A stretch of DNA of 64,000 bases from contig NC_090356.1 of NCBI RefSeq assembly GCF_035084215.1, forward strand, positions 26,226,001-26,290,000, written 5' to 3'. The notes under the pieces were generated by a model, which was not told where the DNA came from, ran no database searches, and worked only from the letters and a program-made list of their open reading frames with translations. Positions within the stretch are counted from its first letter, which is position 1; each line of letters starts with the position of its first letter. This document shows, in pieces, positions 6,621 through 63,307 of this stretch. This DNA is from Heptranchias perlo (lineage: Eukaryota). The translations under genes and the position numbers were made by a program.

Positions 6621-8275
6621 AGGCTAGAAACTCGGCTGTGTTGCGCCCGTTGTATAGGCGCTACGTGGCCTCTTGAAGTTCCAAAATAGCATCTGGAATG
6701 CTGCCCACACTTCTAGCGTGATGTGCGCCTGATGCCATCTTGGTAAAAGGGCTCGGGGAGGTGCAGATAATGAACGCCGGCTACATGTAAATTAAGAATA
6801 ATATGCGTTAGATCAGTGTGCAATGCTGATTTAAAGGGATTGACACCATTTTGATGCAGCCATCACACTGTCTTAACCATGACTAGCTAAACATGTTGTA
6901 AACAGCCTGGAGGTCCCCCCCACCAGCACTATTTAAAGGGGCCATGCAGGATTTACAGGTTAGTTGCTGGATCATTGCTTCTGGCTGCTGATGCATTTGT
7001 ACCTGTTTTTGGAGGGCTCCTAGACTTGAATACTGGGATGAGGGGACATAGCCTAACATTTAGAGCCAGGATTTGCAGGAGTGAAGTTTGGAAACGCTTC
7101 TACACGCAAAGGGTGGGAGATATTTGGAACGCTCTTCCGCAAACGGTACTCGGTGCTAGCTCAATTGTTAATTTTAAGACTGAGATTGATAGATTTCTGT
7201 GAACCAAGGTTATTAAGGGATATGGGGCTAAGGCGGGTATATGGGGTTAGGTCACAGGTCCACCATGATTTCATTGAATGGCGGAACAGGCTCGAGGGGC
7301 TAAATGCCACTGCCACTCGCTGCCTCCTGTTATGCGCCACCTTCTCCTGCAAGAAAGTGGGACGTGTGTCAGTGAGTGTCCTGCAGGATGTCTGGGTAAT
7401 GTGCCTGTCATGGTTGAATAGCTGGCAGTGCGTGTGACCTGTGAGTTCTGGGTGTGCGGCTTGAAACAGTGGCAATGTGTGAAGGTGAGAGGAAGCATCT
7501 GATTGGAAGAGTTGAGTACTGGTGGAAAGAGTTTGTTTGGGTGATGGGGGGTGTAGTGTGTGGAGCAGTGGATGCGGCTAGTGGTGCAGTTGGTAGAAGA
7601 CGCCATTTGACAGTTGACCTCACTCACATTGACCACTCGTGTCAAAGCATTGAACTTCTGCCTGCACTGCATCCATGTTCGTGGTGCTATGCTCCTGGCA
7701 TTCACTTCGTCCCCTACTGCCTCCCACTGCCTCTTGAGCATATATCTGGAGGGCCTCTTGCCCCCTGAAGTAATATGTTGCCCCTCCTTCTGTCCACCTC
7801 TTGCACCAAGGTCTCCAGTGCATCAGCAGATAACCTTGGTGCACACTGTCTCGGAGGCCTGTTACAAACCCAGATCGGCAGATTGGTGAAGTCTGGCGGC
7901 AGATTGGAGGATGTGGGACTAAGTAGTGTACAACCTTTATTCAATGTTTTAACATAACTCAACAGTTTTTAAACAGAGGGATGGGACCCGCATCTGTGTT
8001 TTACATGTGCGATGTCTCTGTATGGACCCGTATGGTGCGGGCTGCCTTTAAGAGGAGCAGGCTGACTTTAAGAGGTGCGAGTAACTCACGTGAGATTTGG
8101 GCCCCCTGCTGGTGAGACGTGCTGAAGCTGGAGAGAACGTCGCAGCTCGGCCTCGATGCTGCGCAACTGTCAGGTAAATGAGTCTAACGTGCTGCCTGCG
8201 TCAGAGCCACCGGTCGCAGGCTAATTGCGCACTGCGATGCTTGTGCCTGGATTCGGGGGTTAACCAATTTAACAC
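6621..8275 (-). mobile_element. PIF/Harbinger element carrying a degenerate Myb/SANT-like gene
   Basis: APRLSADALETLVQEV..RQWEAVGDEVNARSIAPRTWMQCRQKFNALTRVV (about 7628-7850), GTGAGT donor at 7627, acceptor at 7347, then EKVAHNRR. One frameshift. Ends approximate. Confidence 0.75.
7018..7305 (+). mobile_element. CR1 3' fragment inserted in the Harbinger element
   Basis: RGHSL..FYTQRV..WNALP..FKTEIDRFL followed by the tail. Confidence 0.8.
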
Positions 8276-18132: not shown

Positions 18133-19231
18133 AAAGAGTGATTAACACACAGAATAGACTCCCAAATAAGGTAATGGAGGCAGAAACCCTGCAGTAATTT
18201 AAGAATTGTATAGGTACGCTAAGATGGGCTGAATGGCCTCTCTCATCTGTAATTATCATGATCTTGTGCCTCCTGCAGCAAAGTGTACATGCAGACACCG
18301 GGTGAGGACAGGGTCGGGCTAGCGTGTAAGGCACTCCACAGTCAAATAGCTTGCCGCTAATATCTCAACTCACAAATCAACAACGGTCACTTGGATGCGA
18401 ACCAGCTGCCAGTGGAATTGGACTCCAGGAACAGTCGGAGGTTTGAGGAAAGAAAGGCAGAAAATTGGAATCCAAACATTTGGGCATAGCAGCAATCCCA
18501 TTAAGTTGCTTGGATGTATGTGTTAAGAACATGAACTGACAATTCAAAAGAAATTATTTATTATTCTGACAAGATAAGTTTTAGTGTTCAGCATTAAATA
18601 TTAACTGAATTCATCAATGTTGCTGGGAATTGAGCTGAATTTTAAAGAACGTCATACATTATAAGGTGTGAAGTGTAGTTTGCTTGTCATAGGTTACAAT
18701 GCAAGATAATCAGTGACTCCATCACTGTATCAAAGCAGTATTAAACCTTCCCTTCAATTGGACCTCCTAAAATGGAATCTGTAGATATGGACGTTGATTG
18801 TGAGATACGTTGGCTCTGTGGGGTAATTTTCTGGGCTCTGTACTACTGACAGGAGCCTCGAACGTAGGTCACACATACCGGGAATCCGTAGGCAGCGCGC
18901 ACGCGATATGTGCGGCCGAAGATCAAGGCTCCCGACTGGCAGCGGGAATTCAGAAAGTTGACCCCTAGCTCTGCTACAATGGTGTGACAAGAAAAGTGCG
19001 ATGAAGAGGGTGTTTTGTTCCACAGTACACGCTGTCACCATTATTGATAGGGTCTGCCACATTGCAACCCCAAAGGGCTACAAACTCGGATCCTGGCACC
19101 AAATTTAAAATTGCTGAATCTTGGCCACATTCTCGATTTGGTGCAATGTTCATCTGATTTATTTTAATTTCTACATTTTAGATTTTATGAAGTTACCCTC
19201 CCGGGGAAGTGCTTCCTGTAATGGGAGCAGG

Positions 19232-19829
19232 TGGCGGGTGTTCAGGCTCGGAGCGGGTGTTTGGGAGTGGAGGGGGTGTTCGGGAGTGGAGGGGGTGTTC
19301 AGGATTAGAGGGGGTGTTCAGGAGTGGAGGGGGTGTTCAGGCTCGGAGGGGGTGTTCAGGAGTGGAGGGGGTGTTCAGGATTAGAGGGGGTGTTCAGGAG
19401 TGGAGGGGGTGTTCAGGCTCGGAGGGGGTGTTCAGGAGTGGAGGGGGTGTTCAGGCTCGGAGCGGGTGTTTGGGAGTGGAGGGGGTGTTCAGGATTGGAG
19501 GGGGTGTTCAGGAGTGGAGGGGGTGTTTGGGAGTGGAGGGGGTGTTTGGGAGTGGAGGGGGTGTTCAGGAGTGGAGGGGGTGTCCAGGCTCGGAGCGGGT
19601 GTTTGGGAGTGGAGGGGGTGTTTGGGAGTGGAGGGGGTGTCCAGGCTCGGAACGGGTGTTTGGGAGTGGAGGGGGTGTTCAGGATTGGAGGGGGTGTTCA
19701 GGAGTGGAGGGGGTGTTCAGGCACGGAGGGGGTGTTTGGGAGTGGAGGGGGTGTTCAGGCACGGAGGGGGTGTTTGGGAGTGGAGGGGGTGTTCAGGCAC
19801 GGAGGGGGTGTTCAGGAGTGGAGGGGGTG
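19232..19829. repeat. G-rich minisatellite, 19-bp unit (gggggtgttcaggagtgga variants), about 31 copies
   Basis: Direct tandem periodicity of 19 nt with variants gctcgg, attaga/attgga, gcacgg and tttggg. Confidence 0.95.
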
Positions 19830-21442
19830 ATAAGTGGGTGATATGGCCATATTCGTAAAGGCAGAAAAAGACGCATCCAGGGCCTGTGCCTGAAACAGGC
19901 ATTCAGCCCTTTGGATGTGCAAATTAGGGGCTTAATGCCTGTTTAAGGACCTCTTTGCAAAACTGGTTTGTTCTGAACATAGCCGGCGCTGGTCTGGCTG
20001 CGTTAGGAAAACTTGGTCTGAGTGTGGCCTCACCAGCGGTCCTTAAAGAGACAACTGGAGACTGCCAGTAAAATGGTAAATTTGTTAAACAATACTTCAC
20101 TGAGTGTGGAGCCTGGAGGTTCAGGCCTGCTCCTCTTGGCTCCACTGCAGTGTCAAAGACTGTTGCTGGCTCCCACTTGGCCTCTTCCCTCCCGATCGCC
20201 TACACCCCTCTCCTGATCACCCCCCACCCCTGCTTTCCCTATCACCCCCCATATCCCTCCTGACAGCCCCCCTCTCTCTCTCGATTGCCTCTCCCCTCTC
20301 AGGACCTACCTGAGGGCCACTACCGGCGACACAGCGGCCTGAAAGCCGATGTTGATTTGCCAGCGAGCTGCCTGGAGACACCAAGCAGGCTCATTTAATA
20401 AGGCCGGAGGCCCAATATCGGGTGTGCCTCGGGCCTACCCGTTCCGGCCAAGGGATCGTTCCCTGCACCCAGTTTGCGACGACCTGCTGGCGTGAACCAA
20501 TTTTTAAGCCGTATACTTTCCAGGAAGGGTCACTTCCCCTCCCTAACCCAGAATGATGCAGCAAGCCAACTCCTACCTCAGCAGAGAAAAACAATCTCAA
20601 TACAAAGCAGGGAATGCCCCCAGGGACCTTCCTTGATCTACCTTTCTTTCTTTTCTTTTATTCTTTCTCTCTTTCTTTCAAATTTCCAAGCTGCTGGAGG
20701 TTTTCACCACACATGTCTGCTGATACCTTTTTACTCGTTAATTAACGGTGTGACTTTTCCAAAACGGCACCAAGAGTATTTAAATTAATCTGCGATATTG
20801 GTAAACATTCAAAAACCCAAATGATAAATTACACTTTCCTTCGCACACAGGTGGCAGAGAGCACATTGGATCAAATGAGGTTGTAAACTCTCGGTACAAT
20901 GTGTTGTTTAAGCTATTAAAAGCAGTAAATATTCATTGATATTGGTAGCATGGTCAACAGCTATGGGAGTATACTGAATGATTCTCTCTATTGAAGACTG
21001 GAATTCCATTGTGAGCCAAGTAATGGGAGTTGCCAAGATCATTATCAGCTCTGTGTAGAATTACAATTTAATTTCTCCCTGTAGGCATAGTTTTTAACCT
21101 GCTCATGGCATGTTACATGCAGTTGATTTGCTTCATCTCCCATCACTGCTGCCCTGGTCTCTCCATCTTCTTCCCCTGCCAAGAGTTTTTATGATGGCCA
21201 AATCTGCAACCAAATCCTTCCCTCTCTCTCGCTCTCTATCTGCCTGAAGAAGACAGGGCAGGTTCTCCCGTTCCTGCCCCTGGGACTATTGGATCACCAG
21301 TGAATGCGTGGAAATCGGGTGGAGAGGCACACAATCCAAGAGGGAGCCCATCCAAAGGTCCTCCCCCCATTTAAATTAATGGGTGGAAAATCGGGCGGGC
21401 TCCATTAAAGCTGTGTTGCTCCCCCACTACAACAGTGACCAT

Positions 21443-22565: not shown

Positions 22566-24060
22566 GGAACATAGGAACAGGAGTAGGCCATTCAGCCCCT
22601 CGAGCCTGCTCCGTCATTTAGTTAGATCATGGCTGATCTGCACCTCAACTCCATTTACCCACCTTTGCTTCTTATCCCTTGACACGCTAACCTAACTTTA
22701 TCTATATCAGTCTTGAAAGCTCCAATTGTCCCAGCATCCACAGCCTGTTGGGGGAGAGAATTCCAGATTTTCACTGCCCTTTGTGTGAAAAAGTGTTACC
22801 TGATTTCCTTCCTAAATGGCCTAGTTCTAATTTCAAGATTATGTCCCCTTGTTCTTGATTCCCCCACCAGAGGAAATAGTTTCTCTGTATCTACCCTAAC
22901 AAATCCTTTTAATATTTTAAATACCTCAATCAGATCACCCCTCAATCTTCTATCCTCACAGTGGTACAAGCCAGGGTTATGAGACCTGTCCTTATAATTT
23001 AACCCTCTAAGCCCGGTATCATTCTGGTGAATCTGCACTGTACCCCCTCCAAGGCCAATATAAGGCCATGGCTGATAAGTGATGCCCAGAACTGAATGCA
23101 ATACCCCAGATGGGGTCTGACCAAGGATCTTTAAAATTGAAGCATAACTTCCTCCCCTTTGTATTCCAGCCTCCTTGAGATAAAGGCCAACATTCCATTA
23201 GCCTTCTTGATTGCTTTTTGTACCTGTCCACTAGCTTTAAATGATTTATGCACTTGAATTCCCAAAAACTCTCTGCTCCTCCACAGATCCTGGTTTCTCA
23301 CTAATTAGAAAATACTCTGATTTATGTTTCTTAGATCCTCACACTTGCCCATATTAAACTCCATCTCCCATCGTTTTGCCCACTCACTTAATCTATCTAT
23401 GTCCCTTTGCAACTTTCTGCTCCAATCTGCACTACTGACTGTCCCTGCTAATTTAGTAGGATCTGCAAACCCTCTATTCCTTCACCCAAGTCATTAATAA
23501 TATGATGAAAAGTTCAGGCCCCAGAACAGATCCCTGGGGAACACCATTTGTCACATTCCACCAACCAGAGTGCTTACCTTTTATGCCCAGTCTGTCTCCT
23601 ACCTCCCAAACAATTTCCAACCCAAGTCAAAAGGCCCCCAATTCGGTGTGTTCGCTTCTTTGCCAATAATCTTTTGTGGGGAACCTGATCGAATACTTTC
23701 TGGAAGTCTATATAGATAGCATCCATAGACACTCATTTGTCTATCTTATTAGTGCTCTCCTTAAAAAATTCAACCGGATTAATCAGACGTGACACCTTTA
23801 ACAAATCCATGCTGGTTCTCTCTGATCAGTTCAAGTGCTCAGTCACTCTGTCCTTAATGACAGATTCTAGTAGCTACCTCACAACTGACGTAAATCTGAC
23901 AGGCCTGTAGTTACCTGGTTTCTCTCTCCCACCTTTCTTAAATAATGGAGTGGCATTAGCAAATTTTCAGTTTAAGGGCACACAACCCAAATAAAGAGAG
24001 CTTTGAAAGATTATAACTAACGCGTCTGCAATTTCCTCACCTACTTCTTTTAATACTCTG
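22566..24060 (-). mobile_element. Degenerate CR1 LINE (RT to tail)
   Basis: Fragments RVLKEVGEEIADALVIIFQSS and RLRGDLIEVFKI..RTRGHNL; tail at 22566. Confidence 0.85.
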
Positions 24061-24837
24061 GAAAGGAAACTAGGTAGAGTGAGTAAAACAAGTTGGGTAG
24101 TCACAAAATCATAACATTTCACAGCACAGAATTTGTCCCATGAAGTGTCTACTGGTGATTTTCCCCACATGTGTCTAGTCCCATTCTTTAGCTCACTCCC
24201 CCTACCCAGTAGTAGTAGTGGCCTATAAGGGGAATTAGGATCCAGGCCCTAATTTTCAGAAAGCGGAAGTAAGATTGAGTACCAAGAATCACGGCAATAA
24301 GAAATGGAAGAAACAGTGAGGATTAAGGGTATTGAGGGTTACAGAACCAAGTTGGATAGATGGAGTTAAGATACAGATCAGCCATGATTTAATTGAATGG
24401 CAGTACAGGCTCGAGGGGCTGAAAGGCCTTCTCCGGTTCCTATGTTCCGAGGATGAATTAAGATCCTGATAAGGACACACCTGGGCCGGAGAAAACATCT
24501 GTCTGAAGATGTATTTGCTCTAACTCTTTGTTGCTTGCTGATAAATGTTTCACTGCGTTCCCTAAGGAAAAACCCACATCAAACATGAGATTGTGATGGA
24601 AAGAGATTATTTCTCTGATATATGGGATATACCAAGACTAGGCTGAGTTCAGTTGTCAATTCCTGAAAGGGTTTTAATGCACTACTCCTCCTGCCACCCT
24701 CTCAGTCTTTAATCAATAATTCACACTTTGACTATGAGATTTTCAGTACACAACCTCTCACTCTTTGTTCATCCAGTCAGGGACCCTTTCTCACTGGTTG
24801 TCCAAAGTGCCTTGTTTGAAAAGGCAAGTTCCACATT

Positions 24838-25576
24838 GGGCCAGAAATCACTCGGAGCAGCGAGGCAACACTCACCGCCGCTCCTGCGAACTAAATTAAC
24901 GAAAATACTTACTGTGGGCTCGACGACGTCGAATTGCTTGAATTTGAACTTTAAAAAAATTGTGCGCTATCAATCCAGCCTCTGAACAGCGGGAGTTGCC
25001 GTGGCCGGAAAAGTCTGAGAGAGGAGAAGACACGCCCACAAAATTGCTCAATCAGGCAAGCAGACTTCATTCATTTAAAGTTAGTATTCTGTATGTCATT
25101 GTAAATAAAAAAAATAATTTTGTTTATAAAAGGCCAAAGAAATAGTTGAATTAAATAAAAGAGACAGAGGGGAAAAATAAAAAGGAAACATTTAACTTTT
25201 TAATTTAAATTTTTTTATTAACATCCAAAATCTCTTAAAATAAGACTCCACATTTTTAAAAGTTAATTTTTAGTTTTTTGGCATTCATTAATATTTACCG
25301 CGCTGTTAAAACTTAGTTTAGGCCTGGTATTTTTAAGCGTACCTGTTTGGTGGTGTGATTAGTTACTTTCCAGCTGGGCAGATAAGCACGTTTGCACTTT
25401 TTCAATGGTTTCTCTGATTGCAGCGTGTGATGTCCCTTTAATTCGAAGCTGCCATAGGAGCAAGTTCCACGTTTCACTACACATGTGCAAACTCTGGAAC
25501 TTTCTCCTCCATTTCGCCACTGACAACAGAGAGTGCTGTTGAGCTCTACCTTTATTTCGGGAGTGATTTCTGCCCC
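24838..25576. mobile_element. Harbinger-like MITE
   Basis: 16-bp TIRs gggccagaaatcactc / gagtgatttctgcccc, 3-bp TSD ATT on both sides. Confidence 0.75.
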
Positions 25577-26510
25577 ATTGTATCCACATCAACTGAATAA
25601 TAGGGATCCATTGAGTTAATTATTTTCAAAGAACAAATAGTTCCCCATGCTCTGTATTAAACATTTTGTTTGTCCTTTAGGTACGCAATCGTTAATTTAT
25701 TCCAAGCAAATCCTGAATGTAGTAGAAATCTTCTGTTACAGGGACAAAGACAGTTATCAAAAAGGTTAGGTACAATATATACGATATATGTACAATATAT
25801 ACATATCGCATGGTTTCGGGTGGGCTGGGGAGGGTATATATTGTGATGCACAAGGTCTCACAATTGTGTGGGACAGGCTGGATAGGTCAGAGGGTCTTTC
25901 CTTGTCCGCCATTATTTGTATGTTCATATACCACAGCCAGCCTGGAAAAATGATAATGATGGGTCTTATGATATGGCCTGGTCCCATTTGCCCCTACTGC
26001 TCTTCAGCTGTGGCCCAGGGCACGTTCGTTGCTCGGGGCACCTCTGGATTTTGTGACCTGTTCGGCCGTGGGACGTTGAATGTTCTGCTCTCTCTCTCCC
26101 CCTTGAATGGCAGCAGAGAAAGCGGAATGCTGTTAGGAACACCATCCCAGTTCCACACAGAAAGCGAGAAGGCCCCAATAAAAGAGAACTACTTAACACA
26201 ACTATCGATCTGAGAAAAAATAAAATTTAAAAACTATTGTGTACAAAGTCTTGTTTTTTTTAATCATTGGTTGCTGCCTTACTGCTTGTGGCTGGAAAGC
26301 TTTTATAGTTTGGCTGGAAACCTTTTGGTTAAATTATTTCTAAAGCACTTTAATCCATATAGGTTGGTTTGATTACTATAAAGAACGCCTTTGAACAAAA
26401 GCACTTTTATCTGTTTTTATTCAATTGATCAAGAAGATCGTAACTTGAACATTTATTAATTCTGAATTATAGCCGAAGTACACCAAGTTAAGAAGCTCTG
26501 CCTGATAATT

Positions 26511-26958
26511 TTAGTATGGTGTCCATTGGGATGAGCAAATAAACACTTGGACCAGAGCCTGGTTGCATGTTTCTCCAGAATCAAGGTCTGATGTGCTTTC
26601 CAAAGTTGCGCGACTCACTTCTTTGATCTCCACAAACTGGCGTCTTCTTGACATTTGCTCTTTCTTTAAAATGGCTGCTTGGAATGTGTTCTCTCTACTG
26701 GCAGAAGTTCTGCAGCGACCTAAAACAAGAATGGTGGGCCTCAAGAAAGCTCTCACGGGTTGGCTAGAAAGACAATGTGCAAAGAAATCAGACGCTGACT
26801 CTAAGAACAACAGAATATGAATGATATCCTCCTGAGAGAAAACCTGGTCCATGTATTTGTTCAAACCCGGCCAAGATTTATCAAGCAAGCTGCTCCAGCA
26901 AACTACTGTCGAATCAGCAAGGTTTGATAAACTGGTCACAAATCCTTCCCAATTCAAT
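26511..26958 (-). CDS. Candidate terminal coding exon (exon 3) of an unidentified ~197-aa protein
   Basis: T-rich acceptor ttgctttttatattgttttaatgttAG directly before the 148-codon ORF. Stop at 26511. AATAAA on minus strand near 26452-26457 and 26416-26421. Not repeat-like. Confidence 0.6.
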
Positions 26959-27006
26959 CTAACATTAAAACAATATAAAAAGCAAATTATTCCACATTTT
27001 CTTTGA

Positions 27007-27900
27007 TATGTACACTGACGATACCCAGCTCTACCTCTCCACCCCCTCTCTTATCAGCAATGGCTCATTGGGTAGCACTCCTGCCTCTGGGTCAGAAAGG
27101 TTGTGGGTTCAAGTTCCACTCCAGAGACTTTGAGCACAAAATCTAGGCTGACACTCCAGTGCAGTACTGAGGGAGTGCTACACTGTTGGAGGTGCCATGA
27201 GATGTTAAACTGAGGCCCTGTCTGCCCTTTCAGGTGGCTGTAAAAGATCCATTGGTACTATTTTGAAGAAGAGCAGGGGAGTTCTCCCCAGTGTCCAGGC
27301 CAATTTTTATCCCTCAACCAACACCTCAAAACAGATTATCTGGTTATTATCACATTGCTGTTTGTGGGGCCTTGCTGTGTGCAAATTGGCTGCTGTGTTT
27401 CCTACATTACAAAAGTGACTACACTTCAATAGTAATTCATTGGCCGTGAAGCACTTTGGGATGTCCTGAGGACATGAAAGGCACAATATTAGCACAAGTC
27501 TTTCTTTCTCTCTTGACCCCTCCACTGTCTCTGTATTGTCAGATTTCTTGTCCAACATCCAGTCATGGATGGGCTTCAATTTTCTCCGCATAAAGATTGG
27601 GAACATTGAATTCATCATCTTCCCGCCCCCATAACTTTGCCACTGATTCCATCCTTCTCTCTGGCCACTGTGTTTGGCTGAACCAAACAGTTCGCAACCT
27701 CAGCATCCTATTCGACCCTGGGCTGAGCTTCTGACTCCACATCCTCTCCATCACAAAGATCACCTACTTCAACCTTTGCAACATTGCCTGCCTGCCCCCT
27801 CCCCATCTCAGCTCAGCTGCTGCTGAAACCCTCATCCATGCCTTTCTCACCTCCAGATCTGACTAATCCAATGCTCTTCTGACTGACTTCCCATTCTCCA
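27007..27900 (+). mobile_element. L2 LINE RT fragment interrupted by a SINE
   Basis: YTDDTQLYLS-coding start at about 27010; resumes after 27510 with L2-like sequence. Confidence 0.7.
27058..27510 (+). mobile_element. Full-length Deu-domain tRNA SINE (SacSINE1-like)
   Basis: A-box tggctcattgg, B-box ggttcaagttcc, conserved central body, (cttt)n tail, candidate TSD ctctctt. Confidence 0.8.
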
Positions 27901-28026
27901 CAAACCTGATAATTTGGCTTGTCATTGGGATATAAAATAAACTATAGCATGACCACTAATTTATTCATGTCTAGGGAATGCTTTCCCACTAGATACAATT
28001 GATGGCCTACCAAAGAGTTAGGTTAC

Positions 28027-28085
28027 CTCAATGGAATAGTCTCTATGACCTGAGCACAGTAATATGCAAAAAGCTTTCTCCTCTG
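28027..28085 (-). CDS. Candidate internal coding exon (exon 2, 59 nt)
   Basis: Acceptor cttactcatctctcaatctcaaatAG, donor AG|GTAACC. Reads QRRKLFAYYCAQVIETIPL(R), phase 0 in and phase 2 out, matching both neighbours. Confidence 0.55.
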
Positions 28086-28847
28086 CTATTTGAGATTGAG
28101 AGATGAGTAAGTTTGGCAAGCCTCGCTGGTACCCGTGTGAGGCGGAGGAGAGATTATTAAGATGAATGTCTTTTCAATAACTCCCCTCACAGTTCCGGAC
28201 TTGGCAAGAGATGTGATTCCATATTAAATTGACCAGAATGCGTTTGTTTAGAAAGTGCTTTCAAACCGAAAGCAATAGCCCAGAGTCTGCAAATTTCAAT
28301 CCCTGCTTTGCTGGCTATAACTCAGAGGATTATATTCGGCTATTAATTGGCTAGAAGTTGAACACAACTTAATATAGAAATAGACCTACACTCCATCTTC
28401 ACCTAAAATTACTAATCAAAGCTCTGGCAATTCTGTCCTACAGACGACCTACTGTGCTTTTAAAGCTCTCCCTCTGTTTTGACGTGCTTATTTCTATCTG
28501 CTTTAAGGTTCAAACAGGAGGATAAACACAGACTGATCCATTTGGTAAATGAAACACTTCAATCCCTGGAGACACCAATGCTCCAACACAGAGTTTAACC
28601 AATGAAACAGTTTATTTCCTAGAAAAAAAAACCAAGAAAAACATCTACACTTTAAAGGGAATTCCAATAAATTCTTGGGAGGGTGGGATGAATTTCCGGG
28701 GGGGGGTGGGGGAGAAGGTTCACGTCATTTATACCGTTTTTCTGGGTTTTCCACGATACTTCGGTTAAAGTTCACTCCCACAGTATTTAATGCCTAAAAA
28801 TTATTCACCTGGATTTATAACTCATACATATATGGGAAAATATAAGA

Positions 28848-29088
28848 GTGGGGGAGTTATCCCTGGTGTCCTGGCCAATATTTATCCCTTGAATAACACC
28901 TAAAAGAAAATTATCTGGTCAATAACGCATTGCTGTTTGTGGGAGCTTGCTGTGCACAATTTTGGCTGCCACATTTCCTACATTACAACAGTGACTACAC
29001 TTCAATAGTACTTCATTGGCTGAAAAGCGCTTTCGGACATCCTGAAGTTGTGAAAGGCGCTATAGAAATGCAATTCCTTTCTTTCTTT
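28848..29088 (+). mobile_element. Deu-domain SINE 3' part
   Basis: Matches the 3' half of 27058-27510. Confidence 0.75.
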
Positions 29089-29291
29089 AAATGATTTAAA
29101 TCCTTCATCGTCCCATATTCAGGTTGATAGATTCATAGAGCTTCTGCTAACTGCTGCTCTGATCCCACCTTTCTCCAGACTTTAGGAGGCAGTATTTCTT
29201 GGGTTACTGTGAATTCCTGGCTGAAGCTGGTTCAAATTAAAATGCTGAGTCGCGTAAACCGTACAATGGCAAACAAACACAGGGTGCCCAC

Positions 29292-29378
29292 CTCAATTGC
29301 CTTTTCTAAAGTTGTGACCAGCTCCGTAAAAAGGTTCAGTGTGTTCTCTTGACATTCTTCTGTCCACTGTTTTATCAT
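29292..29378 (-). CDS. Candidate first coding exon (exon 1, 29 codons)
   Basis: ATG with A at -3 and an upstream in-frame stop; MIKQWTEECQENTLNLFTELVTTLEKAIE; donor GAG|GTGGGC (weak). Confidence 0.45.
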
Positions 29379-29419
29379 AATAAATAGGTTGACATCCCGG
29401 TTAAAATAGCAGACGGGAG

Positions 29420-29530
29420 AGTGTCATGTGATCGTGCTCAGCATTGCGCTGCCTACATCACAGGCGGTAATGTCATTTCCCCCTAAAGGTCATGTGATTT
29501 AGGCCTAAAGTTACCACAGCGCGTCTTAGG
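29420..29530. promoter_or_regulatory. Possible promoter with two GTCATGTGAT (M-box/E-box) motifs
   Basis: gtcatgtgat near 29423 and 29489, local CpGs, just upstream of the candidate ATG. Confidence 0.3.
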
Positions 29531-30249
29531 AAATCCTACAGATGTGCAGTGTGCAAATGGCCAAACTAGATTAATCCCCTGTGGAATTGGCTGTGGAATG
29601 TGAAATTATCCCCACCTCCAAATCACAGATACAAGTTTGGAGGCTTATTTAGAAACACAGGTAGGTTAGAAGGTCACATTAATATTCTGGAGTTTTGTTC
29701 AATTTCCTTTGGGAGGCAGGGAGAAACATTGCAGGACGACGTTTGAAGAGATTAAATAATAAAACGCAAATCGATAATAAGACAAATTGTGTAGAGCTTG
29801 TAGAAGGAATGGGCTTGGAGGACTGACTGGCCTTTTCATTTGTTCTTATGTAGTGAAAGAATCAGCCACAAGAAAAACGTGCGGACAAATATTTAGAAAC
29901 AGCTTTCCACAGCCGAACAATGTTTGAGGCATTAGCACTGAGGAGATACGGGACACAGAAAATACAGTGGTGATCTCTTACTCCCCTCCTCCCTTGCACT
30001 TAAGACTTTGAAGATCACTGTGCATCGCTAATCCAACCTACGACACATGTGGTCCACAAACATCTGTTAACTAAGTTATCATGCACCAACACCAGATTGT
30101 TTCTTCGCTTCTCATCTTTTCCCTTCTTTCTCCCTCTCTTTTTTTTGTCCCCTCGCTAACTTTAGGTTGAAGTTATGAAATAGATAAATGGTACAATAAA
30201 TATTAAACCATGTGCCTACATGAAGGGTATCGTGCTCCTACATTTATTA

Positions 30250-30583
30250 CATTATAAAATGATAAAAGGAATCGATAGAATAGATACAGAGAAGCTATTT
30301 TCTCCGGCGGGGGAATCCAGAGCGTGAGGGCACAATCTTAAAATTAGAGCTAGGCCATTTAGGACGGAAAACAAGAAGTATCGTTTCACACAAAAAGTAG
30401 TGGAAATGTAGAATTCTGTTCCCCAATGTTGGGTCAATTGAAGCTTTCAAGACTGAGATTGATAGATTTTTATTAGGTAAGAGTATCAAGGAATCTGGAG
30501 CTAAGGCAGGTAAATGGAACTGAGGTCTAATTAATGGTGGAACAGGCTCGAGGGACTGAATGGCCTACTCCTGTTCCTATGTT
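30250..30583 (+). mobile_element. CR1 3' fragment
   Basis: Same C-terminal and tail motifs as the other CR1 copies. Confidence 0.8.
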
Positions 30584-32375
30584 GCACTGTAAGTTTGAAA
30601 AGAGCTGAACAAAAGCTATTTAAAAGGTAAGTATTGTTTTTATGGAATCTGCCGAAAAGGTGAGAGGCCTTAGTGAGAATAGAATTGAGGGTTAAAAGCT
30701 TTGGACACCCTGTAAAATGAGAATAATGAGGAGAGAAGAGGGTGCAAGTAGTTTTGCTGGGAGGTAAAAGGTTATTTCAAATTGCTAAAGGCAAGGAATG
30801 GGAAAGAAATTTTATGAAAATGGAAGCTGACAGGAAGAAAATAGCCTGCACAGTTTCTTCACAAATGAGAAGCTTAAATTTCAAAGCATCAGCAGGAAAC
30901 AGATCAATGTACTGAAAGAAATTAATAGAAATACATTGAATGACATCTAAGAGAGGACAGTTAGATGGTAGTAGCATGCTCAACTATGAACTGGAAGTCA
31001 CTTATACTCTCTTCAATCTCTTGCCTATTAGCCTGACCCTGGTAAATGATGGAATCTGCTCCGAGCAGTGGAAGGTACGAAGGATGGAAGGAAAGAAAGA
31101 CAGAAAGAAATATTGCCATGGGATCTTTTATGTCCACCTGAGAGATCACACAGATGCAATTGAACTTATTTTACCAGATTCAGCTCTTCACTCTCTCCTC
31201 ATTTTTCAAACAATCCACTGATGAAGTGGTGTGTGATTATTCATTCTGTATTGTCAGTCAATGGACTGCGCTGAAACACTCAGACATATTGGACTGAAAC
31301 ACACAATTCATCTCAATGAGGCAGCAGACAGTCAATCGTCATACTATTTATAAGGCTGGTGCTGTTGTCATTACAGCACGGACTGATTGCTTTACTCACT
31401 GTTGGATACATGAACCCAGGTTTTACGATTGGCATTATTTAAATGCCAGCAATTAAATATTGACAGTTGGAAAATCTCGGCGATTAAGCGTGAATCACAT
31501 TGATGTGATCCCCAACAGTTTTGGTATTGGTTCATTTTCCAATGTGATTTCATTGTTCCAAAAAGCTTATTCGAGTAAGTTTTATTTAAGATGCAAAAAA
31601 ATACAATTAATTGGGAATCTTTGACCTTTTTGTTCCAATTATCTCCTGTCCCAATCTTATGGTGTTGACTAATGATGAGGGACATAGCTCCACTGGCACC
31701 AACTGCCCTTAAGTACCTCACCCAAGTGTCTATTATCCATGTTAGCCCAGCAGTACGCGCTGGAGGCCTACTTGACTTGCTGGGGGAGGAGGAGCAGCAC
31801 AATTGAGTCCGATCCAGTCCGCACCTGGCGGGGACACTTCCTGATTTTTCTTCCCTCCCTAATCCGCCTGAAATCAACTAACTCAACAAAGACTGAGGAC
31901 CAAGTTGGGATCTTCCTGATCTGTATGGCTCAGAACAACAGCAGATTCTGCACTTGCCTAACTGAGCTATGAGGAGAACGGCTATTAAATGAACTTTTGA
32001 TTAAGTGGCTTGCAATTAAATTGAATAGACTACATGATGCTCAAACAATAAAATAGGATTTTTCTGCTGAGCACTATACACTGTGGCCTAGAGATTCTGG
32101 CCCAGAGGGGGAGGGGGGAAGAACTCTGGCAGAGTTGTAGTGAGAGGGGATGCAGAATTTGTTAAGGAGCCCAGATCCAATGGGATTCTGCCCCTTTAAA
32201 GTTATGTCTGAGATTTTGACCCAGGAAAGGCGGACACATCTTGTACCCATCACCCCTATGTCCCAGGGGCATTTTGGGGATCTTTCTGGCGGGGCTACTC
32301 TGGGGATTCCGCTCAGCATCCCACTGTATTCTCTAGTTGTCGGCAGTCTTGGGTTCTGTTCTGGGTCTACACTGG

Positions 32376-33049
32376 TGTAAGGAAATATTGGTTTTAGGTT
32401 TTAAAAGGTATTATGGGGAACTAGGTTCAAAAAGGGTTAATTAGTTAAAGCTTTAGTTGAAGGTACTGTACTATAACATAGACTGCTTTTAAATTAACTT
32501 ACTGCAGCTGCAGGCAATAAAAGCCATTGGAATCTTGTTGTTACAAACTAAGGCAAGAACATGTGGGTAATTCCCCACTGCATCAGACACCTTGGAATGC
32601 CGAAACTAGGTAAGTCTTGTCGCTTTCGGATCCAATAGAGTGATTTATCAAAGGTTTCCAATGTAGAAGGAGGGAACCCTTGGGTATGTGAACGTCAACA
32701 GCCCAGGGCACATTGTTGGCAGGCCCCCATTGGCCCATTGAGTAATGCCTGTCAATCATCAGGCATCATTTCATATAAAGAAGAGCACAAAACTCATGCT
32801 TGTTGTAGAGGACAGAAAAGAAGGTACCTAGTGGGTAAACGAGAACGAGAGGACGTGTATGAGGGAACGTGGAAAGGAGTCACGGCCTCTACCCAAAGAA
32901 CAATGGGGTAATATAATTCTCAACTGTGCTTTGCAAACTACTGCTTAAATACTGTAAGGTATTAATTCTTGTGCTAAATAAAGTCATGTGGCTATCAACC
33001 ATTATGGTGTCAGTCTCGAACATTGAATAGAGAGTCAAAATTGACTACA
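32376..33049 (+). mobile_element. Solo LTR (674 bp)
   Basis: TG...CA ends (tgtaagg / gactaca), 4-bp direct repeat ctgg on both sides, TATA-like catataaag near 32773, AATAAA near 32977. Confidence 0.65.
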
Positions 33050-33521
33050 CTGGGGCCTTCAAACCTGAAGGCAAATGACAATCAGTCCTGCTAAGATTGA
33101 TTGCCGTTGGAAGAAGGGCCAAGGAGTGCTCCCGTTAAAAGACTAACTTTGCACCTCCTTTTTCTTCAGCCCCAATGTGCGTTGCTAGTTGAAGCTCCAG
33201 TGGCGCATTGGGGCATGTGCCTCTTTTCCCCCAAAAGGCATGTGTCACCTGCCCACATTATTCTAATGACCCCCGTCCCTGTGATTTGCGAGCCCAAATA
33301 GCAGAGGGAAGTCCAGCTCCACTGCACTTCATCCAACACGAACTGTTCATGGAATTTCTTGCCTCATCACTTTACTGTGATTACGTGGGTGATGCAGAGG
33401 CTTGACTGTAGAAAGGAATGGCTTAGCTGTGGAGAGAAGGCAAGAAGCTAGGTAAAATCAGCCCCTGAGAGGGGTTAAATTCAGCACAGGAGGAAGGGCC
33501 GAGTGGCCTCCTTCTATACTA

Positions 33522-33990
33522 AAAGAAAGAAAGAACTTGCATTTATATAGTGCCTTTCACAATCTCAAGACATCCCAAAGTTCTTTACAGCCAATTAAGT
33601 ACTTGTGAAGAGTAGTCACCATTGTCATGTAGGAAATGCAGCAGCCAATTTGCGCACAGCAAGGTCCCACAAACAGTAATGTGGTAATGACCCGATTATC
33701 ACTGATTGTGTTTTTCACTGATGTTGGTTGAGGGATAAATATTGGCCAGGACACCAGGGAGAACTCCCCTGCTCTTCTTTGAATAGTGCCATACGAACTT
33801 TTAAATCCACCTGAGAGGGCAGATGGGGCTTCGGTATAACGTTTCATCCAAAAGACAGCACCTCCGACAGTGCAGCACTCCCTCAGTACTGGAGTGTTAG
33901 CCCAGATTACGTGCTCGAGTCACAGGAGTGGGACTTAAACCCACAAGCCTCTGACTCAGAGGCGAGAGTGTTACCCACTGAGCCACAGCT
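33522..33990 (-). mobile_element. Full-length Deu-domain tRNA SINE
   Basis: Reverse complement of the 27058-27510 family. Confidence 0.85.
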
Positions 33991-34304
33991 GCACAAAACA
34001 GACACATCGACATGTATAAATACTCTTTTCTAAATTAGCTTTGGACCTGTCAATCCCGTTGCCAAGTTTATTTTTTTAATAGCCTGGCTTGGTCAGACTT
34101 CAGCTGTTGGTCTCTGAATTGAAACTCAATAATATTTAATCACAATTTGAAACCCTCAGCCTTTCAAAATGGAATATTTTTGATTTTCTTCTCAGGTTTT
34201 TCATTTTACTGAGTTGCAATTAGAGAAAAGAGCGCGTGGGCACATAGGTTTCAAGAGTGTCGTCACTGTCCCGCAGAGCTTCTGGATGAGAGAATCAGCT
34301 TTTT

Positions 34305-35495
34305 TTGATATATATTAATGACTTGGACATGAGTGAACAGGGCACAATTTCAAAATTTGCAGATGACACAAAACTTGGAAGTGTAGTAAACAGTGAGGAG
34401 GATAATAATAGACTTCAAGAGGACATAGACAGGCTGGTGGAATGGGTGGACACATGGCAGATGAAATTTAATGCAGAGAAGTGCAAAGTGATATTTTTTG
34501 GCAGGAAGAATGAGGAGAGGCAATATAAACTAAATGGTGCAATTCTAAAGGGGGTACAGGAACAGAGAGACCTGGGGGTATATATGCACAAATCTTTGAA
34601 GGTGGCAGGATAGGTTGAGAAAGCGGTTAAAAAAGCATACGGGATCCTGGGCTTTATAAATAGAGGAATAGATTACAAAAGTAAGGAGGTTATGTTGAAC
34701 CTTTATAAAACACTGGTTGGGCCACAACTGGAGTATTGTGTCCAATTCTGGGCATCGCACTTTAGGAAGGATGTGAAGGCCTTAGGGAGGGTGCAGAAAA
34801 GATTTACTAGAATGGTTCCAGGGATGAGGGACTTCAGTTACGTGGATATACTGGAGAAGCTGGGGTTGTTCTCTTTAGAGCAGAGAAGGTTGAGAGGAGA
34901 TTTGATAGAAGTGTTCAAAATCATGACAGGTTTAGATAAAGTTTTTCCTCACGTCGCCTTTGGTTCTTTTGCCAATCACCTTAAATCTTTATCAGCGGCC
35001 AATGTTCCTCCAGATCTGACTCTCTTTTTCGAGTAAGCTGCACTGTTTTGAAGTCTCCAACTCGAACTCATGGACCTCAAAGCTCTGGAGCTTTTTATAA
35101 TCCTCAGGCTTCCCTTCCTCCATGAGTCCGAGACGGAGACTTCAAAATGGTGCAGCTTACTCGAAAAAGAGAGTCAGATCTGGAGGAACATTGGCCACTG
35201 ATAAAGATTTAGGGTGATTGGCAAAAGAACCAAAGGCGACTTGAGGAAAAACTTTTTTACGCAGCGAGTAGTTATGATCTGGAATGCGCTGCCTGAAAGG
35301 GTGGTGGAGGCAGATTCAATCGTGGCTTTCATAAAGGAATTGGATAAGTATTTGAAGGGAAAAAATTTGCAGGGCTACGGGGAGAGAGCGGGGGAACGGG
35401 ACTAACTGGATTGCTCTTACAAAGAGCTGGCACAGGCTCGATGGGCCGAATGGCCTCCTTCTGTGCTGGAACGATTCTATGATTCTATGATTCTA
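34305..35495 (+). mobile_element. CR1 3' fragment containing a templated inverted insertion
   Basis: YINDLD..SKFADDTKLG, LEYCVQFW, FFTQRVV; (attctatg)n tail. Confidence 0.9.
34938..35255. repeat. Inverted repeat, 137-bp arms, 44-bp spacer
   Basis: 34938-35074 is the reverse complement of 35119-35255 with about 8 mismatches. Confidence 0.9.
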
Positions 35496-48554: not shown

Positions 48555-51500
48555 TTTTTTTTTATTTGTTCATGGGATGTGGGCGATGCTAGCAAGGCCA
48601 ATATTTATTGCCCATCCCTAATTGCCCCTGAGAAGGTGGTGGTGAGCTGCCTTCTTGAACCGCTGACGTCCGTGTGGTGAAGGTTCTCCCACAGTGCTGT
48701 TAGGAAGGGAGTTCCAGGATTTTGACCCAGCGACGATGAAGGAACGGCGATATATTTCCAAGTCGGGATGGTATGTGACTTGGAGGGGAACGTGCAGGTA
48801 GTGGTGTTCCCATGTGCCTGCTGCCCTTGTCCTTCTAGGTGGTAGAGGTCGGGTTTGGGAGGTGCTGTCGAGGAAGCCTTGGCGAGTTGCTGCAGTTACA
48901 TCCTGTGGATAGTACACACTGCAGCCACAGTGCGCCGGTGGTGAAGGGAGTGAATGTTTAGGGCAGTAGATGGGGTGCCAATCAAGCGGGCTGCTTTGTC
49001 CTGGATGGTGTTGAGCTTCTTGAGTGTTGTTGGAGCTGCACTCATCCAGGCAAGTGGAGAGTACTCCATCACACTCCTGACCTGTGCCTTGTAGATGGTG
49101 GAAAGGCTTTGGGGAGTCAGGAGGTGAGTCACTCGCCGCAGAAAACCAAGCCTCTGACCTGCTCTTGTAGCCACGGTATTTATGTGGCTGGTCCAGTTAA
49201 GTTTCTGGTCAATGGTAACCCCCAGGATGTTGATGGTGGGGGATTCGGTGATGGCAATGCTGTTGAATGTCAAGGGGAGGTGGTTAGACTCTCTCTTGTT
49301 GGAGATGGTCATTGCCTGGCACTTGTCTGGCGCAAATGTTACTTGCCACTTATCAGCCCAAGCCTGGATGTTGTCCAGGTCTTGCTGCATGCGGGCTCGG
49401 ACTGCTTCGTTATCTGAGGGATTGCAAATGGAACTGAACACTGTGCAATCATCAGCGAACATCCCCATTTCTGAACTTAAGATGGAGGGAAGGTCATTGA
49501 TGAAGCAGCTAAAGATGGTTGGGCCCAGGACACTGCCCTGAGGAACTCCTGCAGCAATATCCTGGGGCTGAGATGATTGGCCTCCAACAACCACTACCAT
49601 CTTCCTTTGTGCTAGGTATGACTTCAGCCACTGGAGAGTTTTCCCCCTGATTCCCATTGACTTCAATTTTACTAGGGCTCCTTGGTGCCACACTCGGTCA
49701 AATGCTGCCTTGATGTCAAGGGCAATCACTCTCACCTCACCTCTGGAATCCAGCTCTTTTGTCCATGTTTGGACCAAGGCTGTAATGAGGTCTGCAGCCG
49801 AGTGGTCCTGGCAGAACCCAAACTGAGCATCGGTGAGCAGGTTATTGGTGAGTAAGTGCCGCTTGATAGCACTGTCGATGACACCTTCCATCACTTTGCT
49901 GATGATGGAGAGTAGACTGATGCGGCGATAATTGGCCGGATTGGATTTGTCCTGCTTTTTGTGGACAGGACATACCTGGGCAATTTTCCACATTGTTGGG
50001 TTGATGCCAGTGTTGTAGCTGTACTGGAACAGTTTGGCTAGAGGCACGGCTAGTTCTGGAGCACAAGTTTTCAGCACTACAGCCGGGATGTTGTCGGGGC
50101 CCTTAGCCTTTGTTGTATCCAGTGCACTCAGCCGTTTCTTGATATCACGTGGAGTGAATCGAATTGGCTGAAGATTGGCTTCTGTGATGGTGGGGATATC
50201 GGGAGGAGGCTGAGATGGATCATCCACTCGGCACTTCTGGCTGAAGATGGTTGCAAACGCTTCAGCCTTGTCTTTTGCATTCACGTGCTGGACTCCGCCA
50301 TCATTGAGGATGGGGATTTTTACAGAGCCTCCTCCTCCCGTTAGTTGTTTAATTGTCCACCACCATTCACGACTGGATGTGGCAGGACTGCAGAGCTTTG
50401 ATCTGATCTGCTGGTTGTGGAATCGCTTAGCTCTGTCTGTAGCATGTTTCTTCCACTGTTTAGCATGCATGTAGTCCTGTGTTGTAGCTTCACCAGGTTG
50501 GCACCTAATTTTTAGGTACGCCTGGTGCTGCTCCTGGCATGCTCTTCTACACCCCTCATTGAACCAGGGTTGATCCCCTGGCTTGTTGGTAATGGTAGAG
50601 TGAGGAATATGCCGGGCCATGAGGTTACAGATTGTGCTGGAATACAATTCTGCTGCTGCTGATGGCCCACAGTGCCTCATGGATGTCCAGTTTTGAGCTG
50701 CTAGATCTGTTCTGAATCTATCCCATTTAGCACGGTGGTAGTGCCACACAACACATTGGATGGGTGTCCTCAGCGTGAAGACAGGACTTCGCCTTCACGA
50801 GGACTGTGCGGTGGTCACTCCTACTAATACTGTCATGGACGGATGCATCTGCGACAGGTAGATTGATGAGGACGAAGTCAAGTAAGTTTTTCCCTCGTGT
50901 TGGTTCGCCCACCATCTGCCGCAGGCCCAATCTTGCAGCTGTGTCCTTCAGGACTAGGCCAGCTCAATCAGTCGTGGTGCTACCGAGCCAGTCTTGGTGA
51001 TGGACGTTGAAGTCCCCCACCCAGAGTAGATTTTGTGCCCTTGCTACCCTCAGTGCTTCCTCCAAGTAGTGCTCAACATGGAGGAGGACTGATTCATCAG
51101 CTGAGGGAGGACGGTAGGTGGTAATCAGCAAGAGGTTTCCTTGCCCATGTTTGACCTGATGCCATGAGATTTCATGGGGTCCGGAGTCAATGTTGAGGAC
51201 TCCCAGGGCCACTCCCTCCTGACTGTATATCACTGTACCGCCACCTCTGGAGGGTCTGTCCTGCCGGTGGGACAGGACATACCCAGGGATGGTGATGGAA
51301 GAGTCTGGGACGTTGGCTGAAAGATATGATTCTGTGAGTATGGCTATGTCAGGCTGTTGCTTGACTAGTCTGTGGGACAGCTCTCCCAATTTTGGCACAA
51401 ATCTCCAGATGTTAGTGAGGAGGACTTTGCAGGGTCGACTGGGCTTGGTTTGCCTTTGTCCTGTCTGGTGCCTAGTGGTCTGATGCCGGGTGGTCCGTCC

Positions 51501-56863: not shown

Positions 56864-57276
56864 TTCATTCATTAAGCCATTGGGGCGGCTGGAATACAAG
56901 CCTACAAGTTGTTTAAAGTGCTCAGCAATCCCTATGTACTTTTAAGACACTCTACTCCAACAAAACAGCATACTGCAGCCCAATTATCAAAATGTAACTG
57001 CACTTATGAGCATATGTTTCTATTGAAGTTATCAGCTCTTATTCACAGTCCACAATAACCATTATTTTCTTGTCGATTCTCTCTGAAATGGCCATTGACG
57101 GGGATTCCCAGTATAAAGAATGAAACTCACTTCAGAAATATTATAGCTTTCAACTGTCCGTTTCTTCCAGACTTGGTCCAAATCAATAGATGTGTTTTCT
57201 TTAAGTATTTTCTGTTGTAAACATTCTGAAAGTTCTTGGGTGTCACGCCAGCTTCCATCAGTTCTCCCCACACACG

Positions 57277-57653
57277 AAGCCCGAGGAGAAGAAAGCAGCT
57301 GCCAAGAAAGGCGCCAAGAAAACCTTGACTAAAGCGCCAGCAAAAGGTGGCAAGAAGCGGAGGAAGTTGAGGAAGGAGATTTACTCCATCTACATCCACA
57401 AAGTGACAAAGCAGGTTCGCCCCAACACCTGCATCTCCTCCAAGGCCACGAGTATCATGAACTCCTTTGCGAACGATGTTCACGGGCGCATCGCGGGTGA
57501 GGCTTCCAGTGGCCTGGCCCATTACGACAAACGCCGCACCAACATGTCCCAGGAGATTCAGACCGCCGCGCGCCTGCTGCTGCCCGGGGAGTTGGCCAAG
57601 CTTGCCATGTCAGAGGGACAAAGGCAGTGACCAAGTACACCAGCTCCAAGTAA
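57277..57653 (+). pseudogene. H2B: Histone H2B pseudogene
   Basis: [68 protein letters not shown]. Start codon reads AAG, 1-nt deletion near 57618, many substitutions at invariant residues, no 3' stem-loop. Confidence 0.93.
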
Positions 57654-60979: not shown

Positions 60980-62870
60980 TAGAATCATAGAATCATAGAA
61001 GTTACAACATGGAAACAGGCCCTTCGGCCCAACATGTCCACGCCGCCCAGTTTATACCACTAAGCTAGTCCCAATTACTTGCACTTGGCCCATATCCCTC
61101 TATACCCATCTTACCCATGTAAATGTCCAAATGCTTTTTAAAAGACAAAATTGTACCCGCCTCTACTACTGCCTCTGGCAGCTCATTCCAGACACTCACC
61201 ATCCTTTGAGTGAAAAAATTGCCCCTCTGGACCCTTTTGTATCTCTCCCCTCTCACCTTAAATCTATGCCCCCTCGTTATAGACTCCCCTACCTTTGGGA
61301 AAAGATTTTGACTATCTACCTTATCTATGCCCCTCATTATTTTATAGACTTCTATAAGATCACCCCTAAACCTCCTACTCTCCAGGGAAAAGAGTCTCAG
61401 TCTATCCAACCTCTCCCAAAAAGTCAAACCATCAAGTCCCGGTAGCATCATAGTAAATCTTTTCTGCACTCTTTCTAGTTTAATAATATCCTTTCTATAA
61501 TAGGGTGACCAGAACTGTACACAGTATTCCAAGTGTGGCCTTACTAATGTCTTGTACAACTTCAACAAGACATCCCAACTCCTGTATTCAATGTTCTGAC
61601 CAATGAAACCAAGCATGCTGAATGCCTTCTTCACCACCCTATCCACCTGTGACTCCACTTTCAAGGAGCTATGAACCTGTACTCCTAGATCTCTTTGTTC
61701 TATAACTCTCCCCAACGCCCTACCATTAACGGAGTAGGTCCTGGCCCGATTCGATCTACCAAAATGCATCACCTCACATTTATCTAAATTAAACTCCATC
61801 TGCCATTCATCGGCCCACTGGCCCAATTTATCAAGATCCCGTTGCAATCCTAGATAACCTTCTTCACTGTCCACAATGCCACCAATCTTGGTGTCATCTG
61901 CAAACTTACTAACCATGCCTCCTAAATTCTCATCCAAATCATTAATATAAATAACAAATAACAGCGGACCCAGCACTGATCCCTGAGGCACACCGCTGGT
62001 CACAGGCCTCCAGTTTGAAAAACAACCCTCGACAACCACCCTCTGTCTTCTGTCGTCAATCCAATTTTGTATCCAATTGGCTACCTCACCTTGGATCCCG
62101 TGAGATTTAATCTTATGTAACAACCTACCATGCGGTACCTTGTCAAAGGCTTTGCTAAAGTCCATGTAGACCACGTCTACTGCACAGCCCTCATCTATCT
62201 TCTTGGTTACCCCTTCAAAAAACTCAATCAAATTTGTGAGACATGATTTTCCTCTCACAAAACCATGCTGACTGTTCCTAATCAGTCCCTGCCTCTCCAA
62301 ATGCCCGTAGATCCTGTCTCTCAGAACACCCTCTAACAACTTACCCACTACAGATGTCAGGCTCACCGGTCTGTAGTTCCCAGGCTTTTCCCTGCCGCCC
62401 TTCTTAAACAAAGGCACAACATTTGCTACCCTCCAATCTTCAGGCACCTCACCTGTAGCTGTCGATGATTCAAATATTTCTGCTAGGGGACCCGCAATTT
62501 TCTCCCTAACCTCCCATAACTTCCTGTGATATATTTCATCAGGTCCCGGAGATTTATCTACCTTGATGCGCGTTAAGACTTCCAGCACCTCCCTCTCTGT
62601 AATATGTACACTCCTCAAGACATCACTATTTATTTCCCCAAGTTCCCTAACATCCATGCCTTTCTCAACCGTAAATACCGATGTGAAATATTCATTTAGG
62701 ATCTCACCCATCTCTTGTGTTTCCGCACATAGATGACCTTGTTGATCCTTAAGAGGCCCTACTCTCTCCCTAGTTACTCTTTTGCCCTTTATGTATTTGT
62801 AGAAGCTCTTTGGATTCTCCTTTGCCTTATCTGCCAAAGCAATCTCATGTCCCCTTTTTGCCCTCCTAAT
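60980..62870 (-). mobile_element. Young 5'-truncated CR1 LINE with uninterrupted RT reading frame
   Basis: 611-aa ORF 61065-62900 (NYRPVSLTS, SQHGF, GVPQGSVLGP, FADD, LEYCVQFW). (ctatgatt)n tail. No endonuclease domain. Confidence 0.95.
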
Positions 62871-63307
62871 AAGTGCCCTTTTACCTCTCACAACCATCAT
62901 CTGTATTGTGTTTGTCAGGTCCTTCAGCTTTCTACGTCCTCAATACTCCGGTCTCTGAGTTTTTCCCCTTTCCAATTGCTTATTTTTTACTTACGTTAGT
63001 CACTGATCGTATTACAACAAAACCCTTCTTCTCAATTACATTCTACCCAAAATAACAAGCTCTGTACAATCACATTCTACCCCCCCCCAACGTTAGAAAG
63101 TAAAAGGGGGAGAAATTCTGTATGGATGATATGGATGGGGAGGGGAGGGAGGGGAAAGGACTGGTGGGAGCAGGAGGGTCGGGTAGGATTAGGCGTATCC
63201 TCCGACTTAAAATGATCAACTAATGCGTTATAAAACGTCTAGTGTTCTTACACTGCACAATACAGGGAATAACAGTTCTTGCCTGTATTGAATCATACCA
63301 TGTGTTC

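Follow-up and report, generated by a model that had tools for sequence, protein, structure and literature searches.

The window, the whole 64-kb stretch of DNA analysed here, probably carries on its minus strand a small spliced gene with no detectable relatives, the last acceptor of which is corrected below. The first-pass annotation had assembled it from three minus-strand segments (29378-29292, 28085-28027 and 26958-26511) with GT/AG ends and phases 0 and then 2, giving one uninterrupted frame of 197 codons with AATAAA signals past the stop. The segments with their ends and phases, the frame and the signals (at 26457 and 26421) are all present in the sequence. Candidate exon 1 (29292..29378, minus strand; 87 nt, 29 codons) runs from an ATG to a donor GT in phase 0 and is predicted to form an amphipathic helix. 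Candidate exon 2 (28027..28085, minus strand; 59 nt) lies between AG and GT and carries the frame from phase 0 to phase 2; it could also be a first exon. The supported terminal exon (26409..26763, minus strand) begins at acceptor 26763, holds 83 open codons up to the stop at 26513-26511 and includes a 3′ UTR of about 100 nt. Upstream of it lies an in-frame extension of 65 codons (26764..26958, minus strand), which may be an alternative beginning of the last exon; its frame is open and it holds a BH3-like motif at 26816. Two AATAAA polyadenylation signals follow the stop (26457-26452 and 26421-26416, minus strand), and the longest contig ends at 26409.

Two further details concern the 5′ part of the model. 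Exon 2 starts at a tandem acceptor (TAG then CAG, 28082-28087, minus strand), with which a one-codon variant is possible. Short ATG frames are found near the proposed start, at 29443, 29395 and 29355 (minus strand): two are upstream, one of them ending on the start codon, and one of 20 codons is inside exon 1. Exon 1 could not supply the start of the long frame if transcription began past 29378.

The position of the last acceptor was examined with contigs from four public runs that contain part of the stretch. Their RNA nature is a guess; X1 to X3 derive from one sample of one study and X4 from organism B. Contigs were aligned to 24500-33500 at a likeness of 85, and repeats dominate the joints listed, among which neither a joint to exon 1 nor the upstream partner of the last exon appears. 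An X1 contig (record 3, depth 19.6) follows 26409-26765 with 0 mismatches and continues for 69 letters off the genome. Similarly, an X3 contig (record 18) follows 26482-26765 with 0 mismatches and has 28 further letters off the genome, while an X2 contig (record 10) matches 26468-26736 without mismatch. Both the X1 and the X3 contigs break at 26765-26764, a minus-strand AG behind a pyrimidine tract; read on the plus strand, the break offers no donor. The acceptor is therefore at 26763, and the exon upstream of it ends in AG. The X3 contig opens with exactly 30 upstream letters and the first exon base; we take these 30 to be the k-1 letters that a fork at a donor leaves, assuming k = 31. The X1 contig ends 7 nt past the second AATAAA (26421), although contig ends cannot show an RNA end.

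Since these mismatch-free contigs leave the genome at a canonical acceptor, a last exon of about 355 nt, spliced at 26763, is supported. Thus the proposed acceptor at 26958 gives way to 26763, and the last exon begins 195 nt (65 codons) later with the frame kept, for a product of 132 aa, provided that exons 1 and 2 belong to the transcript. Of the real gene that had been proposed, one part stands: one-sample contigs support a spliced minus-strand gene ending at the AATAAA signals, which is likely and is probably polyadenylated. Its 197-aa product is not the form seen.

Read depth elsewhere adds little, as lack of cover is no finding by itself. The three exact contigs account for all the depth in the two bins over the last exon, so nothing from X1 to X3 is aligned on 26766-26907. 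Zero depth was observed in X1 and X3 on 29316-29616, which covers most of exon 1; for X1 this makes a misfit with a direct joint from exon 1 to 26763 in its contig (51-aa product). In X2, three bins between 28413 and 29917 show faint depth (0.66-0.72), and in X4 the last exon shows none. With its terminal GAG, exon 2 fits the joint, but it is 1 of 18 such donors scoring at least 3 in 26766-33500.

Splice sites were scored with a rough weight matrix and ranked among minus-strand GT/AG sites. Acceptor 26763 scored 6.3 (95th percentile) against 1.7 (79th) for acceptor 26958, which is preceded by a T-rich tract. The donors of exon 1 (7.7, 98th percentile) and exon 2 (6.7, 96th) are strong; the acceptor of exon 2 at 28085 reached only -1.7 (58th). 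Exon 1 had been regarded as the weakest part of the model. By our scores, its donor and its composition both rank at the 98th percentile, and the weakest parts are the acceptors 28085 and 26958. Exon 2 contains no ATG, and the first ATG of the last exon, at 26654, opens a frame of 47 codons.

Immediately upstream of exon 1 lies an M-box/E-box pair, a candidate promoter or enhancer (29423..29497, read on the plus strand). It consists of two exact TCATGTGA sites at 29424 and 29490, 66 nt apart and 45-120 nt before the ATG, and accounts for 2 of the 4 TCAYRTGA sites in the 64 kb. The pair was noticed post hoc, and a repeated 10-mer occurs in 52 of 1277 150-nt windows. USF-type factors also bind M-box sites. 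In this arrangement before the ATG, the two sites resemble target promoters of MiT/TFE factors (M-box, CLEAR). According to one report, TCATGTGA is the M-box bound by MiT/TFE factors, and two M-boxes in such an arrangement drive a reporter (PMC6355916). As far as sequence goes, the pair favours a promoter or enhancer adjoining exon 1.

The surroundings are rich in repeats. Self-matches cover 38% of the window, where CR1-type and other LINE frames are present; such a repeat landscape suggests a cartilaginous fish. As the first-pass annotation had noted, SINE and L2 insertions fall inside the predicted introns: SINE copies at 27054-27509 and 28844-29088, and an L2 remnant at about 26990-27920. 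The latter, a decayed LINE in intron 2 which we take to be L2 (26990..27920, plus strand), is interrupted by the SINE at 27054-27509 and was recognised by its translation; repeat depth over it is high in the runs. The SINE fragment of intron 1 (28844..29088, minus strand) is 79-84% identical to five other copies in the window. No tandem repeats were found in 24000-34000 and no Rfam match in the window. Elsewhere, an old SINE-like element at about 31140-31960 (minus strand) shows repeat depth in all four runs, although the window has almost no further copy of it. A 161-codon frame with no Pfam match lies within it, as does the acceptor at 31779, the strongest in the region. Two LINE reverse-transcriptase frames that are long (632 and 624 aa) and little decayed (48896-50794 and 61065-62939, both minus strand) suggest two recently active families. 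A GC-skewed tandem array at 19191-19860 carries long repetitive minus-strand frames.

A transposon match had been named as what would speak against the gene. The coding parts gave no blastn, tblastn or profile match to the transposons of this window. When aligned to six window repeats, exons 1 and 2 exceeded their shuffles for none; exon 3 did so for one of the six (score 36, against a maximum of 30.5 in 40 shuffles), and the other 17 of the 18 exon-repeat alignments stayed within shuffles. A CR1 origin of exon 1 was considered and rejected. The match behind it is 35 nt long (29384-29418; 29/35, E 1e-4), is to the CR1 copy at 34610-34644 and lies directly upstream of the ATG. It is absent with the four other CR1 copies (1 of 5 only) and with the CR1 profile; we consider it chance or a small remnant outside the frame.

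A Pfam scan of 221 of the 227 non-repeat frames of at least 55 aa (six low-complexity or repeat-edge frames were excluded) revealed no recognisable intact gene in the window. With no recognisable neighbour gene there is no synteny. The only matches above or close to the notice level were an H2B-like frame and, below threshold, Myb/SANT, DUF7455, DUF5388 and BIK. The H2B-like frame (57205-57630, plus strand; Pfam Histone E 1e-13) is isolated and diverged, with many departures and no clear start, and is likely a pseudogene. The Myb/SANT-like frame (7274-7822, minus strand; Pfam E 0.003, below cut-off) is likely a remnant of a Harbinger-type transposon.

We then consider the coding capacity of the gene. 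From acceptor 26763 the three frames stay open for 22, 83 and 2 codons, and it is the 83-codon frame that joins exons 1 and 2 into 132 aa. At least 83 open codons after an acceptor were obtained in 164 of 5000 dinucleotide shuffles and after 221 of 3615 non-repeat AG sites, that is, in 3-6% of controls. Upstream of 26763 the frame remains open for another 95 codons; a 132-aa gene alone does not account for this much, a hint that acceptor 26958 is, or was, used. Measured from stop to stop, the frame has 179 codons, more than any other of its kind, but six further non-repeat frames of 135-166 codons show that long chance frames occur in this window too. A builder of three-exon models, run over 34 kb of non-repeat DNA on both strands, returned the locus as the only model of at least 190 aa. 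At 130 aa, eight other stops could be built upon, none with an AATAAA within 150 nt. The thresholds of the builder were set post hoc to the scores of the locus itself, so its support for a gene is only mild.

Composition, ranked against the non-coding frames of the window with vertebrate frequencies, placed exon 1 and the 132-aa model at the 98th percentile, the 197-aa model at the 96th and the 83 codons at the 92nd; exon 2 (71st) and the skipped 65 codons (61st) ranked lower. The helical moment was matched by 53 of 1000 shuffles for exons 1 and 2 together, 8 of 1000 for the 65 codons and 51 of 1000 for the 197-aa model. No such signal was detected in the 83 codons (649 of 1000 shuffles reach their moment) or in the 132-aa model (239 of 1000). 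Neither the 132-aa nor the 197-aa model has a signal peptide or membrane segment, as judged by top 19-residue hydropathies of 0.95 and 1.48, respectively. All coding statistics have p values of 0.02-0.06, on exons that were chosen for their open frames. The evidence for coding is modest and the coding status about even.

Homology searches, with single exons as queries, returned no homologue in the libraries searched, in line with the earlier view that the protein belongs to no assignable family. The 148-aa frame of exon 3 had no match in Pfam, in PDB sequences or in a word index of proteins of 260-2000 aa; against metagenome and viral contigs it gave 118 and 5 pattern matches, none of them confirmed. 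Its one match among 1.84 billion representatives, P0001 (E 5e-20), is a tandem repeat in which 11 weak stretches are summed, and was discarded as an artefact. The 83-aa part had no candidate among proteins of 45-146 aa and no usable ESM Atlas match; the search with the 63-aa frame over exon 1, among proteins of 112-2000 aa, was likewise empty. ESM recognition values were 1120 and 2207, under the 2300 mark, and ESM matches at 0.90 to GPCR fragments were rejected, with only 123-132 features in common. Among PDB sequences exon 1 matched designed helical repeat proteins only (best E 0.023); we attribute this, like its DUF5388 match below the Pfam cut-off, to a generic amphipathic helix. Four exact 20-mer matches extend to just 24-28 nt and are chance. 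Four peptide motifs had no match in the literature outside supplements, whose gene lists could already contain the model.

Structure prediction from single sequences gave all-helix models with pLDDT of 36.9 and 48.7, which are unreliable. Foldseek returned one match (E 9.9). In the VIA fold search Z stayed below 5; several NLR helical domains were listed at Z 3.2-4.1, and the 50 matches listed include no chain of the death-fold or Bcl-2 type. The best VIA match of the 87-aa model (six helices, pLDDT 48.7) is an unrelated bacteriocin (Z 4.4, rmsd 2.4, 50 aligned). No family profile of the death-fold domains (PYD, DED, CARD) was listed in the Pfam scan. Secreted four-helix cytokines have a signal peptide and phase-0 introns. 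These features are absent from the exon 1-2-3 model, where the 7-residue hydropathy of the first 25 residues is only 1.39 and the second intron is in phase 2. Resemblances to erythropoietin, IL-34, the W2 domain, the SOCS box, saposin, the pyrin domain and BID had no Pfam or PDB support and were set aside as helix look-alikes.

Taken together, these results lead us to favour, tentatively and at somewhat less than an even chance, a spliced and polyadenylated minus-strand Pol II gene whose product, of about 132 aa, would be lineage-restricted, soluble and helical and would work as a binding partner, not as an enzyme. Transcription would be driven from the two M-boxes 45-120 nt before the ATG, as sites for MiT/TFE- or USF-type bHLH-ZIP factors, and the RNA would be spliced as 87 + 59 + about 355 nt, then cleaved and polyadenylated after the AATAAA pair (past 26421). 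Its soluble 132-aa product could bind a partner through the amphipathic helix of exons 1 and 2. Under other conditions, the in-frame acceptor 26958 may add an amphipathic module of 65 residues, giving the 197-aa form. The donors at the 98th and 96th percentiles, the protein-like composition and the M-box pair speak for this reading; the lack of a homologue in our searches, the weak exon 2 acceptor and the 83 codons without helical signal speak against it. A coding gene of a slowly evolving vertebrate would often be expected to have annotated relatives.

Nearly as likely as the 132-aa protein, at roughly a one-third chance, is a spliced, polyadenylated lncRNA whose last exon overlaps a long frame by chance. 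Exons 1 and 2 would then be assembled by the reader of the sequence, or be non-coding, and at most the 47-codon frame from 26654 would be translated. No homologue was found in the protein libraries searched and the window is otherwise without recognisable intact genes, both as expected of such a transcript. The same holds for exon 2, with a weak acceptor, as for a first exon, and no ATG; the first ATG of the last exon is that at 26654. The six other non-repeat frames of 135-166 codons, and the 3-6% of controls with such a frame after an acceptor, also agree with chance. Nevertheless, the frame takes up about 70% of the last exon and its stop precedes the first AATAAA by 55 nt. Two upstream segments with strong donors and protein-like composition join it in phase, and 95 more codons are open upstream, 65 of them amphipathic (8 of 1000 shuffles).

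It is unlikely that the last exon is instead the 3′ end of a longer gene with upstream exons beyond 33500 or outside the window, in which either the 83-codon frame or the 22-codon frame followed by a 290-nt 3′ UTR would be used. Eighteen donors inside 26766-33500 fit the joint and any outside could too, and a 22-codon frame is below the length reach of the searches. Nevertheless, no recognisable coding exon was seen in the 221 of 227 non-repeat frames of at least 55 aa, and the searches with exon 3 and exon 1 among longer proteins gave none, which is weak evidence.

Slightly less probable still is that the 197-aa form is the main product, with acceptor 26763 serving a minor or tissue-specific alternative. 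In its favour, the additional 65 codons keep the frame open and are amphipathic, a T-rich tract is present at 26958, and this form is the only model of at least 190 aa from the three-exon builder. Both contigs that reach the site nevertheless leave the genome at 26765, acceptor 26958 scores 1.7 against 6.3, and the composition of the 65 codons is at the 61st percentile.

These skipped 65 codons, open in frame and amphipathic (8 of 1000 shuffles), also carry a motif L-x-x-x-S-D-x-F at 26816. A BH3-like pattern, written post hoc, occurs there and at one other place among the 127,996 six-frame codons of the window; the motif departs from the BH3 consensus at 2-3 positions. A match to the Pfam BIK family (E 0.07-0.16) reached 12.4-13.5 bits, about half the cut-off of 25, and no other Bcl-2 family profile was listed in the Pfam scans. 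This match falls on positions 104-144 of the BIK profile, its C-terminal part and presumably not its BH3. The size of the product is near that of BID. In contrast to BH3-only Bcl-2 proteins (BIK, BID), it has no membrane anchor and no PDB sequence match, and the motif sits in the part skipped by the contigs. With the family profile below cut-off, we do not file the gene under BH3-only proteins, and the motif is a weak lead. One report records BID, BIM and BMF in sharks and rays (PMC8998228). It is very improbable that the gene is a lineage-restricted, M-box-controlled apoptosis regulator of the BH3-only kind, in which the choice between acceptors 26958 and 26763 would switch a 197-aa killer form to a 132-aa form without BH3; this includes a divergence too great for family profiles. 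Least probable of all, and barely credible, is a DNA origin of the contigs, from a rearranged allele or a very young processed copy, with no transcription of the locus: the runs are RNA by guess only, but two of them break at the same canonical acceptor, one contig ends beside an AATAAA, and a spliced message would have to exist for a processed copy to arise.

If the 132-aa frame of our preferred reading is translated, the locus would be a compact vertebrate gene, for the exons of which 1.8 billion protein representatives contain no detectable relative. It would provide a candidate for a lineage-specific protein, together with a promoter that can be tested and an in-frame choice of acceptor that includes or skips an amphipathic module. 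A non-coding locus would be an ordinary lncRNA. The case also illustrates that modelling a gene from GT/AG sites of matching phase can locate a real gene and yet choose the wrong acceptor.

Compared with known systems, the locus resembles orphan (taxonomically restricted) small coding genes: it is compact and multi-exonic, with a polyadenylation signal, a short, predicted helical product and no homologue in the searches run. It differs from established members of that class in that its translation and conservation are putative. Its canonical acceptor, AATAAA signals, repeat-rich, gene-poor surroundings and lack of a protein homologue are equally those of vertebrate spliced, polyadenylated lncRNAs. 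In contrast to these, however, about 70% of its last exon is taken up by a frame that two upstream segments of protein-like composition can extend in phase.
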